Numbered from the stretch's first letter, positions 1 to 4,668 are shown. The stretch is 64,000 nucleotides of DNA from an uncultured Gammaproteobacteria bacterium (GCA_964344965.1 CAYFPJ010000002.1:68623-132622); one strand, 5' to 3'. Program-made: numbers and translations. Notes: generated by a model not told the origin, from the sequence alone.

Positions 1-817
1 AACATTCTGATACCAAGACATCGGCCTCTAGTATTGAAGTGTCTCCTTTGGTCGATGCTTCAAGCACGAAATCAGGATTATCTTTAAACTCCGAGCTTAT
101 CGAGGCGATCAAATCTGGAGAACGACGCCTGGCTTCAGGATGAGGACGAGCAATTACTCGATAGCCAGCATCAAGAAGTATTTTGATTAGGGGCTTACCA
201 CACAATTCCAAAATATTATCTTTTCCCCACGATGGAGCAATTAAGATCAATTTCTTATTAGACTTTTGTTCTTTTTGATATTTTTTGTAAGATTGATAAA
301 TGCGTTCCAACCTGTGATAGCCAGCTTTTATTAATTTTTTTTTCTTGAGGCTATGGATCTCTTCATACTTCCTAATTTCATCTATCTGATGAGGTCCGAC
401 GCACAAAATAGAATCATAATGATCAAAAGCTCCATTGTTGTACATCATATGCGTACTGACTAGAGCGTGAAATACGTAGACATAGTGGACAGGATTAGCT
501 GATCTTTTGAGATGAAATTGATTTAGATCTGTCAAGGTCATCACAAAGACCTTGCAATTGATAAAGGCCATCAAAAAAGGCAATAATTTATTTATATAAT
601 AACTATGTATTTTGGGATTGGAAGTTTTCAAAATAGCATCATTGGGATCAGATGTGATATAGCATATATCTTTATTATATTTATCAGTAAACTCACCAAT
701 CATTCCTTCAAAAGATGAAAAATATCCCCCATGCTCAGCATAAAAAATAATATCCCTCTTTTCTTTGGAGGTTTTATAAAAAAAACGATAAAAATCTTTT
801 ACCTCTCTAAAAAACAT
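1..817 (-). CDS. TagB/TagF-family (CDP-alcohol/glycerophosphotransferase-like) protein, N-terminal about 270 aa; 3' end lies beyond the window edge
   Basis: The minus-strand frame is open from the window edge to an ATG at 817-815, which is preceded by AGAGGAAAG. My translation reads MFFREVKDFYRFFYKTSKEKRDIIFYAEHGGY... and contains NKKLILIAPSWGKDNILE and GYRVIARPHPEARRR. These resemble the TagF 'LYAPTWR' and 'RxHP' motifs. It is not in the ORF track because it is truncated. Confidence 0.45.
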   Translation of the reverse strand, partial: MFFREVKDFYRFFYKTSKEKRDIIFYAEHGGYFSSFEGMIGEFTDKYNKDICYITSDPNDAILKTSNPKIHSYYINKLLPFLMAFINCKVFVMTLTDLNQFHLKRSANPVHYVYVFHALVSTHMMYNNGAFDHYDSILCVGPHQIDEIRKYEEIHSLKKKKLIKAGYHRLERIYQSYKKYQKEQKSNKKLILIAPSWGKDNILELCGKPLIKILLDAGYRVIARPHPEARRRSPDLIASISSEFKDNPDFVLEASTKGDTSILEADVLVSEC

Positions 818-818
818 A

Positions 819-1085
819 CTAACTTTCCTCTTTTTGATTACTTTCTAATAAATTTGCACTAGGATCACTATTGGTCAGATCTGGTTTTTTCTTGGAAAAA
901 AAAGACTTGATCTTACTCCAATATGTCCGAACGGCAACTACCGCACCAATGAGGGCTCCCACAATGGCTTGTAAAATTATAGTGCCGGTTTGCGGGTCAA
1001 GGTAGGCACTAGCTTGCTCTGGCCAAAAAAATATCGCAAACCCTACAATAATTAATATATTTACCAAGCGCGATGACTTTCTCAT
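819..1085 (-). CDS. small hydrophobic membrane protein (hypothetical)
   Basis: 88-aa ORF with two predicted TM helices. It is stop/start coupled (ATGA overlap) to the upstream Fe-ADH gene. Confidence 0.4.
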   Translation of the reverse strand: MRKSSRLVNILIIVGFAIFFWPEQASAYLDPQTGTIILQAIVGALIGAVVAVRTYWSKIKSFFSKKKPDLTNSDPSANLLESNQKEES

Positions 1086-2236: not shown

Positions 2237-3373
2237 TTATTTACTATCCAAATATTTCATAAATAATTCTTTATTTTTTATTGGACTAATAGTAGGTCTG
2301 CCTAGATCCGGACGGGAACCTTTTTTCACTCTCACAATCAACATCTGTGGACCGTCACTACTTTTCATCATACTTATGGCATTGATTAGATCTCCTTTCC
2401 TAGATACCAGTTGTGCACCTTGATAATTATTGGCCAAAGCTAATTTTACAAAATTTACTGCTGACGATGTCGTAGGCTGTCCTCCAGTAGATTCATGTGA
2501 TTCATTGTCAAATAAAATATGATAAAAATTACGCGGCTGATAATATCCGATCGTGGACAAAGCTCCAGCTGACATGATTGCTGCTCCATCGCCATCTAGA
2601 ATAAAAACTTTCTTTTTTGGTCTCTGAAGAGCAATCTCTGCTGCAAATGAAGATGCACAACCCATCGAACCAACCATCAAAAAATCATTCTCGTGACTTT
2701 GTTTTTTCTTCTCTCTGCATTCAAATAATTCTCTTGATGTCTTACCTGTAGTGCCAACTATCACATTACCTTTACCGACAGTATCTACAATTAGATCAAT
2801 ACACTCTTCTCTTTTTAGTAATTGAGTGTCCTGTTCTTTTATTTTTAATTTATTATAATTACCAAAAATTCCTTTTTTAATTACCAAAGCGTAAGCCTTG
2901 TTTGTCCTATCTATGTATTCTTTGGCATTCTTGATAATTTTTTCGGCTTCTTGGTGATCTTCACTCAAAAATCCATATTCTATACCCAAGGTATCCAATA
3001 AATCCAAGGTAATTCTTCCCATTTTAATATGTTGTGGCGCATCCTTTTTGGATGGTTCACCGCGCCACCCCACCATCAATAGCATCGGGACATGATATAC
3101 TTCCTCGTCTGTCAGAGAAGTAACCGGGTTGACTATATTCCCTAATCCTGAATTCTGCAAATATACGACTCCAACATTACCCGTGGCCATATGGTAGCCA
3201 CTGGCCCAGGCAACAGAGTCTCTTTCAATAGCTACTATTCTATTTGTCAACCCCTCTCCATTATGATCATCAAGAAAATCCATCCATTGCTTAAAAGTAC
3301 TATCAGGCACTCCAGTAAAAAAAATAAAATTATTTTCTTTAAACATTCTAAATAATTCTGGACAGCTCAACAT
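2237..3373 (-). CDS. ppd: phosphonopyruvate decarboxylase (TPP-dependent)
   Basis: About 378 aa with the TPP-binding GDG...N motif (ILDGDGAAIMSAGAL...FDNESHESTGGQ). The N-terminal region has the sulfopyruvate/phosphonopyruvate decarboxylase architecture. It is immediately downstream of the PEP mutase gene. Confidence 0.7.
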   Translation of the reverse strand: MLSCPELFRMFKENNFIFFTGVPDSTFKQWMDFLDDHNGEGLTNRIVAIERDSVAWASGYHMATGNVGVVYLQNSGLGNIVNPVTSLTDEEVYHVPMLLMVGWRGEPSKKDAPQHIKMGRITLDLLDTLGIEYGFLSEDHQEAEKIIKNAKEYIDRTNKAYALVIKKGIFGNYNKLKIKEQDTQLLKREECIDLIVDTVGKGNVIVGTTGKTSRELFECREKKKQSHENDFLMVGSMGCASSFAAEIALQRPKKKVFILDGDGAAIMSAGALSTIGYYQPRNFYHILFDNESHESTGGQPTTSSAVNFVKLALANNYQGAQLVSRKGDLINAISMMKSSDGPQMLIVRVKKGSRPDLGRPTISPIKNKELFMKYLDSK

Positions 3374-3378
3374 AAAAA

Positions 3379-4668
3379 TTACCTATTCAAAGGAATGAGT
3401 GTTAAAATTTCTTTAATGGGCATACATTTGTCATCAACCTCATATGATCTTTCGTTTTGTAATATGGACTCAGCCACATTGACCATAGCTGGATAAGCAG
3501 ATCTAATCAACTGATTGGCATAAATAACCAAATTAACTCCAGCATCTCTTAGTTCACTCTCATATACTTGATTATATGTCGAAGGTACGACTATCAGAGG
3601 AACTTTGTGTTCAAATTCTTTATACTGTCGACAAAAATCAAATATTTCGTTTGCCTCTTTTTCTTTACTATGAATCATAACTCCATCAGCCCCACTGGCT
3701 ATATATGCTCTGGCTCTCTGAAGAGCATCATCCAAACCATTTTTCAATATCAAACTCTCAATCCTAGCTATAATCATGAAATCATTGGTGATCTGAGCAC
3801 TCTTACCCATCTTTATTTTGTTACAAAAATTTTCAATAGAATCCTGCTCTTGGACTACGTCTGTGCCAAATAAAGAATTCTTTTTTAGACCCACCTTATC
3901 TTCAATAATGACTGCTGACACTCCCAATCTCTCCAAAGTACGAACAGTGAAAACAAAATGCTCTGGAATGCCACCTGTGTCACCATCAACAATGATAGGC
4001 TTAGTGCTCACTTCCAAAATATCTTGCAAGGTATCCATCCTAGCGACCAGCTCTATATCTGGCTTACCCTTGGCTGTAGAGTCAGTCAAGCTGCTCAGCC
4101 AAATACCATCAAATTCGCGCTTAGCACTTTCTTTATTTACATTGACATTTTCCACAATAAGGGCGCTAAGCCCATTATGAGCTTCTAGAAATCTGACTGT
4201 CTCTTTTGCTTCCAAGAGCCGGCTTAATTTATTCAATCTAATTTCTGGGGTAGTACCGATTTGTTTTTTAATCTGGTGCAGTCTGGTAGAAGAGACACCT
4301 TCTGTATATTCAGGCTCTACCAATTGACCACCCCATTCACTTAGTGTGTCAATCACTCTTTGCCTGGTTTGTCTCTGTACTCCAGTTTTCCAATCATCAC
4401 CATGCACAACGTAGTCAGGACGTATTTTTAGTAAATTTGGCACATAGTCAAGCGTCTCTTGAGCAATGACCTCACTGACTCCTTTGATATTTTCCACAAT
4501 GATCTTGCGTTGCTCAAAAGGCATGTGCGGCAGCCTCTTGTAGCTAGCAATAGCCTTGTCAGTCAAGACACCTACGATAACTTCACCGAGCTTAGTAGCC
4601 TCTTGAATAATATTGATATGTCCGTGATGGATAAGATCAGCACTCATTCCGACGTATACTTTTTTCAT
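3379..4668 (-). CDS. pepM: bifunctional protein: N-terminal HxGH-type cytidylyltransferase domain fused to C-terminal phosphoenolpyruvate phosphomutase
   Basis: N-terminus is [20 protein letters not shown] (HxGH nucleotidyltransferase motif, TagD/CCT-like). C-terminus has [36 protein letters not shown]...[10 protein letters not shown]...[11 protein letters not shown], which matches PEP mutase/ICL-superfamily signatures. Confidence 0.8.

Follow-up and report, generated by a model that had tools for sequence, protein, structure and literature searches.

A Fom1-type phosphonate cassette with candidate machinery for attaching 2-hydroxyethylphosphonate to the cell envelope

We analysed a stretch of 64,000 nucleotides (the window) from an uncultured Gammaproteobacteria bacterium (GCA_964344965.1 CAYFPJ010000002.1:68623-132622), in which the five genes at positions 1-4668 combine a set of phosphonate biosynthesis enzymes with a TagF-like transferase. 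We consider it rather likely that these genes are one instance of a widespread module that places 2-hydroxyethylphosphonate (HEP) on the cell envelope. This reading builds on the gene content, the family and fold assignments, the conserved linkage and the natural gene fusions described below.

The five open reading frames (ORFs) named in an earlier note on this DNA were all recovered where it had placed them, co-directional and tightly packed on the minus strand. They encode a Fom1-type cytidylyltransferase fused to a phosphoenolpyruvate (PEP) mutase (PepM, also called Ppm; 429 amino acids, 3379..4668; PF01467 and PF13714, TIGR02320), a thiamine pyrophosphate-dependent phosphonopyruvate decarboxylase (Ppd; 378 amino acids, 2237..3373; TIGR03297, TPP_enzyme_N and TPP_enzyme_C), a group III iron-containing alcohol dehydrogenase (Fe-ADH; 383 amino acids, 1082..2233), an 88-amino-acid membrane protein, the putative anchor, that combines an AYLDPxTG motif with a transmembrane helix and a W..IK stretch (819..1085), and a TagF-like transferase with a GT-B fold, assigned through its homologues and its AlphaFold2 (AF2) model (1..817). 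The genes are separated by gaps of 1-5 nucleotides or overlap by 4 nucleotides and, given their long reading frames and strong profile scores, are not chance ORFs. The last gene is cut by the window edge after the first 272 of 376 codons; its full-length product was read from a 21-kb metagenome contig (L001, ENA ERZ930065) that matches the window with 0 mismatches over 14,668 bases and extends 6.6 kb past window position 1 (L001:13852-14982, protein P0121). The next gene on this contig, just outside the window and absent from the earlier note, encodes an EptA-like sulfatase-family membrane protein of 513 amino acids (L001:14984-16525).

The steps up to CMP-HEP, the adduct of HEP with cytidine monophosphate (CMP), have good support, since the enzymes are homologous to characterised ones. 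The N-terminal domain of the fusion (residues ~1-136) matches PF01467 (E 1.4e-14, residues 9-131), carries its HxGH motif as HHGH at residue 14 and aligns without gaps to the HEP-cytidylyltransferase domain of Fom1 (PDB 5X3D), with 91 of 133 residues identical (68%, E 3.5e-59). The C-terminal part (residues ~145-429) matches PF13714 (E 2.2e-54, residues 150-403) as well as PDB 5UNC and 1M1B, and the fusion scores 405.5 bits against the PEP mutase model TIGR02320 (cutoff 319.55) while falling far below the cutoffs of the models for phosphonopyruvate hydrolase, methylisocitrate lyase and carboxy-PEP mutase. At residue 256 it has the Ppm-specific motif EDKxxxxxNS, which has been used as a criterion for Ppm enzymes (PMC6697681). 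The claims that the N-terminal domain is a nucleotidyltransferase and that the C-terminal domain is a PepM, not one of its sister enzymes, thus both hold.

Ppd is equally clear, with 425.4 bits against TIGR03297 (cutoff 312.5) and both PF02776 and PF02775 present, and the Fe-ADH matches PF00465 and PF25137, the general Fe-ADH family. Profile searches with PF13714, PF01467, TIGR03297 and PF00465 were all positive, and the triad of fusion, Ppd and Fe-ADH was constant in every close Fom1-like homologue context inspected. The best reading of this enzyme set is a route from PEP through phosphonopyruvate and phosphonoacetaldehyde to HEP and then CMP-HEP, in agreement with the pathway and nucleotide activation proposed in the earlier note. 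The PEP mutase domain would convert PEP to phosphonopyruvate, and Ppd would decarboxylate this to phosphonoacetaldehyde, pulling the unfavourable mutase reaction forward. The Fe-ADH would then convert phosphonoacetaldehyde to HEP, and the N-terminal cytidylyltransferase would join HEP and cytidine triphosphate (CTP) into CMP-HEP, a donor resembling a cytidine diphosphate (CDP) alcohol (cytidine-P-O-P-CH2CH2OH). Cytidylylation of HEP is the activity ascribed to Fom1 itself (Cho 2017, as cited in PMC6697681). Neither the 64-kb window nor L001 has an MpnS/HEPD-like gene, so HEP is likely to be the end phosphonate.

The same four reactions to CMP-HEP are found in fosfomycin biosynthesis in Streptomyces wedmorensis, where Fom1, Fom2 and FomC provide the first activities and an HxGH cytidylyltransferase likewise stands N-terminal to PEP mutase, with Ppd and Fe-ADH following (PMC6697681; NCBIfam matches). 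One could accordingly imagine a cassette for a diffusible, fosfomycin-like phosphonate natural product, with cytidylylation as a transient handle only, but this is very improbable: the called genes of the 21-kb L001 include no radical-SAM/B12 methyltransferase, epoxidase or cupin dioxygenase, the window's lack of any MpnS/HEPD-like sequence points the same way, and every gene nearby is of the envelope-glycan or membrane-transferase kind. In particular, and unlike the fosfomycin cluster, L001 has no Fom3 (the B12 radical-SAM methyltransferase), Fom4 or FomD. We rejected this small-molecule reading for want of tailoring genes, as judged from the called genes and Pfam matches of L001 and, for MpnS/HEPD, from the window as well. 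Judging from its gene neighbourhood, CMP-HEP would most likely serve here as a transfer donor, not as a transient handle for C-methylation.

On the biosynthetic side, the cassette joins the Fom1-type/Pnt systems already on record and adds nothing new, since CMP-HEP formation by a Fom1-type enzyme has been reported before. The fusion architecture, offered earlier as a possible novelty, has its precedent in Fom1; among Ppm enzymes, about 60% carry a fused nucleotidyltransferase, and 23.6% of the non-redundant Ppm entries in RefSeq are PF01467::Ppm fusions (Rice et al. 2019, PMC6697681). In line with this, at least 8000 candidates in the protein database match the fusion at E<=1e-10, some of them already named 'PEP phosphomutase / 2-hydroxyethylphosphonate cytidylyltransferase', and the best 120 of these matches, about 70% identical and from bacteria and DPANN archaea, are all built from the same two domains. 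Fusions at this level of identity (P0009, P0016, P0081, P0092, P0098, P0105) come from Patescibacteria, Ignavibacteria, WOR-3 and DPANN archaea (Woesearchaeota, Nanoarchaeota). The spread of the fusion across such distant lineages suggests frequent horizontal transfer of the cassette. The HEP branch accounts for 8.5% of ppm neighbourhoods (Li and Horsman 2022, PMC8942020). A phosphonate-decorated glycan, which the earlier note thought would be notable, would not be new either: a HEP conjugate is on record from the exopolysaccharide of Stackebrandtia, as is a methylphosphonate adduct of Nitrosopumilus (both as cited in PMC8942020). The present cassette shares with the Pnt pathways a Ppm-fused nucleotidyl activation in a cell-surface glycan neighbourhood (Rice et al. 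2019, PMC6697681). The characterised PntC, however, is a LicC-like PF12804 enzyme that acts on 2-aminoethylphosphonate, with LicD-like transferases nearby (PMC6697681), whereas here we find a fused PF01467 domain with HEP as the predicted substrate, and TagF-like and EptA-like transferases.

The case for a dedicated attachment machinery begins with the genomic linkage of the TagF-like family. A scan of GTDB, with one genome per species and without the source genome of the window (best match 63% identical), placed this family in 80 loci, which belong to many phyla of bacteria and, among archaea, to Woesearchaeota, Nanoarchaeota and Nitrosopumilus. In the 46 well-flanked loci (at least 5 kb on both sides), PepM was encoded within 10 kb of the TagF-like gene in 31, Ppd in 28 and Fe-ADH in 30. 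This linkage to PepM is strong because Ppm is present in only ~5% of bacterial genomes (PMC8942020). Fom1-type fusions account for 17 of the 31 linked PepM genes.

The remaining loci carry other pathways to CMP-linked phosphorus donors, of a methylphosphonate or a phosphoramidate type. The first is illustrated by a Nitrosopumilus locus (L055:9746-18026), which, like the region studied here, encodes a TagF-like protein (43% identical), a small AYLDxGTGS protein (AYLDAGTGS in this locus), an Fe-ADH, PepM, Ppd and a sulfatase-family membrane protein. It differs from ours in having a 456-amino-acid helix-turn-helix/cupin protein of the MpnS/HEPD-like kind, a stand-alone PepM and a stand-alone NTP_transf_3 protein in place of the Fom1-type fusion, and a split Ppd. 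MpnS/HEPD-like genes occur in ~16 of 81 TagF-like loci, L055 included. The second type is seen in six PepM-less loci (L052, positions 2804-12604, L043, L056, L063, L067 and L079) from Phycisphaerae, Binatia and other uncultured lineages. There, the TagF-like gene adjoins a gene for a 1036-amino-acid PPDK_N/PEP-utiliser protein (NF004508, 873 bits), in the company of a homologue of gamma-glutamyl-CDP-amidate hydrolase (NF045546, E 1.9e-33, below the model's cutoff), an NTP_transf_3 protein, a methyltransferase and a sulfatase-family protein, a gene set that we take to resemble the O-methyl-phosphoramidate pathway of Campylobacter. The common denominator of these contexts is a small phosphorus group on CMP, which, as far as gene content can tell, fits a family that uses donors of the CDP-X type.

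In two other loci, from Woesearchaeota (L025:11168-15309) and Planctomycetia (L042:11146-12621), the TagF-like gene is followed by one for a truncated pyruvate-kinase-barrel protein. The protein in L042 is fused to NTP_transf_3, and ATP-sulfurylase and sulfatase genes lie nearby in L025. These loci may use another activated donor.

The assignment of the transferase itself comes from its homologues and its fold. PF04464, the TagF/TagB family, was matched by 24 of 25 aligned homologues (57-65% identical; best E 2.2e-13). The AF2 model of the TagF-like protein (mean pLDDT confidence 90) has a GT-B fold, and a Foldseek search of the PDB returned TagF itself at the top (3L7L/3L7K, E 2.4e-13, TM score ~0.6), and 8QOY and 8A0M, two TagF-like capsule polymerases, matched as well. 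The family is a large one (1033 clusters at E<=1e-30 when its profile was run against 1.84 billion representative sequences) and has four invariant histidines, H111, H117, H143 and H226, the last in an RPHPE motif. By analogy, it would share with TagF/TagB the GT-B fold, of which TagF is the best solved match, a CMP leaving group and a peripheral association with the membrane. It departs from them in that the 376-amino-acid protein shows no detectable sequence match to PF04464 or to any solved TagF-family chain, in that the anchor is a separate 88-amino-acid protein and in that its predicted donor has a C-P bond. Taking fold and linkage together, the 376-amino-acid protein is most likely a CMP-HEP:acceptor phosphonotransferase. 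A literature search linking phosphonates with glycerophosphotransferases, TagF or phosphonyl tailoring turned up no characterised transferase.

The small membrane protein has two hydrophobic segments, with an AY(L/I)DPGTGS motif, one transmembrane helix and the W..IK stretch, and a locus-wide scan found a protein with the same motif in 32 of 81 loci. In Lentimicrobium sp. S6 (L085:13681-14928, blastp E 3e-4) and in P0202, an anchor of this kind forms an N-terminal extension of the TagF-like enzyme. We read the 88-amino-acid protein as the membrane anchor of the transferase because of these natural fusions, which also bear out the earlier note's pairing of the two proteins.

The EptA-like protein matches PF00884 (31 bits, cutoff 25) and has 4-5 N-terminal hydrophobic or transmembrane segments. 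Its family profile matches 38 of the 81 TagF-like loci. The best fold match of its model (pLDDT 82) was full-length EptA (5FGN), followed by EptC (6A82) and MCR-1 (9NWW), with LtaS also found. It has the same layout of N-terminal transmembrane helices and an alkaline-phosphatase-fold domain as these enzymes, and S228, S231 and D410-H411-G412 are invariant in its family, alongside other conserved D and H positions. In contrast to EptA, MCR-1, EptC and LtaS, it has no sequence-level match to any solved chain: its family profile found nothing among the PDB sequences, and the similarity was seen by fold search only.

Further fusions join the transferase to membrane domains. In P0439 and P0397, a sulfatase domain, a YidC-like (60KD_IMP) domain and a TagF-like domain form a single chain; P0403, P0475, P0451 and P0460 combine the YidC-like and TagF-like domains, and P0448 a TagF-like domain with an ABC ATPase. 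The five N-terminal helices of the three-part chains would place the alkaline-phosphatase domain outside the cell and a five-helix YidC-type core would return the TagF-like domain to the inside, which would make a coherent topology. The occurrence of a YidC-type domain within a head-group transfer enzyme was unexpected. The cassette of Lentimicrobium sp. S6 is compact and stands alone, with the fusion, Ppd, Fe-ADH, the anchored TagF-like enzyme and a YidC-like protein of 1010 amino acids whose C-terminus is weakly sulfatase-like.

These observations can be arranged into a scheme for the later steps. On the cytoplasmic face, the TagF-like enzyme, tethered by the 88-amino-acid anchor, would move the phosphonyl group of CMP-HEP to a membrane-bound acceptor: a hydroxyl of the acceptor would attack the phosphonate phosphorus and CMP would be released, chemistry as in CDP-glycerol transfer by TagF. 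On the outer face, the EptA-like enzyme would pass the group from the lipid-linked intermediate to the final acceptor, which is probably the surrounding nonulosonic-acid glycan. Which substrates are used, in which order the two transfers take place and what the acceptor is, we infer from the genes and their relatives. EptA and LtaS draw their head groups from membrane lipids; this and the occurrence of the TagF-like and EptA-like domains in one chain favour a relay, in which anchor, TagF-like and EptA-like parts would load the group onto a lipid inside, pass it across the membrane and transfer it to envelope polymers outside. Such an undescribed machine for small phosphorus head groups is a tentative proposal, made by analogy, that we hold to be possible and somewhat doubtful. 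The donor may be CMP-HEP here and CMP-methylphosphonate or CDP-amidate in the sister loci, with the membrane domain passing the group across.

Several observations weigh against the reading of the region as a module for HEP decoration, or leave room for others. Neither the 376-amino-acid protein nor its 272-amino-acid fragment in the window has a Pfam or NCBIfam match even at E<=5. Thus the assignment of a TagF-like transferase in the earlier note stands on the PF04464 matches of 24 of 25 homologues, on TagF as the best fold and on the linkage to PepM, while the PF04464 search that the note had proposed finds nothing in the protein itself. The family profile had no match among the PDB sequences at E<=10, and searches with single homologues and with the second TagF-like protein found no TagF chain there. 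None of these searches gave a residue-level alignment that would relate the invariant histidines of the family to the catalytic H444 and H584 of TagF. The Fe-ADH scores 198.9 bits against TIGR03405, the phosphonate-specific Phn_Fe-ADH model (cutoff 423.7), no better than against a lactaldehyde reductase model (199.4), so its role as a phosphonoacetaldehyde reductase rests on its conserved position after Ppd. PepM is absent within 10 kb of the TagF-like gene in about one third of the well-flanked loci; the family is not specific to phosphonates. Sister Fom1-like cassettes in Patescibacteria (L086:7265-7984) and on a second metagenome contig (ENA ERZ5402364, L088:12612-13409) use a CDP-alcohol phosphatidyltransferase (PF01066) and have no TagF-like gene, which indicates that other transferases can do the transfer job. 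The cassette of Lentimicrobium sp. S6 lies outside any glycan locus, so that a lipid, not a glycan, could be the final acceptor. Finally, the activities of all proteins in this locus are predicted from their genes, and the transferases of the CMP-nonulosonic-acid pathways in the locus can themselves be PF04464-like. The L088 contig also encodes an extra stand-alone PF01467 protein.

The last point, together with the protein's own lack of a PF04464 match, bears on the idea that the TagF-like protein has no connection with the phosphonate and transfers a CMP-nonulosonic acid, or CDP-glycerol or CDP-ribitol, leaving CMP-HEP as a transient species or as the substrate of a different enzyme, for instance the EptA-like protein. 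The locus does have two NeuB-type synthases and CMP-sugar synthetases, and other PF04464-like/BFO_1060-like genes are present on L001 (16689-18065) and in the window (31873-33231). We nonetheless regard this as quite improbable. The family tracks PepM, Ppd and Fe-ADH across many bacterial phyla and archaea (the 31 of 46 loci above), including the Lentimicrobium locus, which has no nonulosonic-acid genes; its other contexts are pathways to small phosphorus donors, not sugar pathways; and for nonulosonic-acid transfer, the BFO_1060-like paralogues are the more plausible enzymes.

The nature of the end product leaves more room. HEP could be retained in the membrane as a phosphonolipid or other lipid head group, if the TagF-like enzyme transferred it to diacylglycerol or another lipid, or if the EptA-like enzyme delivered it to one. 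The membrane tether of the TagF-like transferase is compatible with this, as is the resemblance of the EptA-like protein to the phosphoethanolamine transferases of lipid A, and the CDP-alcohol phosphatidyltransferases of the sister cassettes are typical of lipid head-group synthesis. The position of the Lentimicrobium cassette apart from glycan loci is also in its favour, and phosphonolipid clusters with sulfatase-family genes have been mentioned (PMC8942020). In the window, however, the cassette sits translationally packed within a glycan locus that exceeds 50 kb, and the only characterised HEP or methylphosphonate conjugates of related clusters are reported from exopolysaccharide or cell-associated material (PMC8942020). 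A lipid end product thus seems unlikely to us, and decoration of the envelope glycan the better account of the region.

In the sea and in soils, a large pool of organic phosphorus consists of phosphonate esters borne by microbial polymers, which are also a methane source. To our knowledge, the mode of attachment of activated phosphonates to the cell surface is not known. The new part of the present analysis is a candidate machinery for this attachment, made up of the TagF-like enzyme, an anchor or YidC-like domain and the EptA-like protein, a set that is seen repeatedly in bacteria and archaea, together with three kinds of CMP-linked phosphorus donor. We found no description of an attachment machinery for CMP-phosphonates in the searchable literature. 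If the relay were true, it would explain how CMP-phosphonates reach the cell surface, a step that has been called enigmatic (PMC6697681). Lentimicrobium sp. S6 is a cultured carrier of the minimal cassette, which makes the question testable.

The cassette lies within the glycan locus, between nonulosonic-acid and glycosyltransferase genes. The earlier note had placed it at the locus end, incorrectly: L001 continues beyond the window edge with the EptA-like gene, a second TagF-like gene encoding the 458-amino-acid, weakly PF04464-like/BFO_1060-like protein mentioned above, and genes for a NeuC-type epimerase, a methyltransferase, a PseF-like cytidylyltransferase and a PAPS-reductase-like (3'-phosphoadenosine 5'-phosphosulfate reductase) protein. 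Upstream of the cassette, the window carries a PseI-type and a second NeuB-type synthase gene (8464-9567 and 10949-11944), acetamidino-modification genes (WbuX/WbuZ/HisH) and many glycosyltransferase genes, on one strand over ~50 kb. The two BFO_1060-family proteins are paralogues, 33% identical and both weakly PF04464-like; with two NeuB-type synthases in the locus, there may be one transferase per nonulosonic acid.

Adjacent to the fusion gene is a gene for a GT2 polyprenyl-phosphate glycosyltransferase-like protein (PgfS/ArnC-like, 4665..5624, minus strand; PF00535, and 273.6 bits against NF047588 PgfS, below its cutoff). Its stop overlaps the start of the fusion gene by 4 nucleotides, and the two are translationally coupled. 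A homologue of it lies near the TagF-like gene in few related loci only, which places it outside the conserved cassette. The gene that precedes it (5634..7469, minus strand) encodes a polytopic membrane protein of 611 amino acids with at least 8 hydrophobic segments and no Pfam or NCBIfam match, which might be an extracytoplasmic glycosyltransferase partner of the GT2 protein; the two genes (4665-7469) resemble a lipid-phosphate-sugar/GT-C-type pair. The start of the 611-amino-acid gene is called differently in different contigs, giving 595 amino acids on L001 and L002 and 611 on L003.

Further upstream, positions 13576-19250 encode a GSA-aminomutase-like (glutamate-1-semialdehyde) aminotransferase, a homoserine-kinase-like kinase and the WbuX/WbuZ/HisH-type proteins, which suggests an elaborately N-modified nonulosonic acid. 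A scan for promoters and terminators gave nothing above shuffled controls, and the 64-kb window has no tRNA gene; it does encode an ECF (extracytoplasmic function) sigma factor, which identifies the organism as a bacterium. Positions 8464-49802 and 51623-62809 hold ~45 minus-strand ORFs of at least 150 codons, almost without gaps, and the sole plus-strand interruption of this run is a GT4 gene (50460-51644). The cumulative GC skew falls monotonically across the window.

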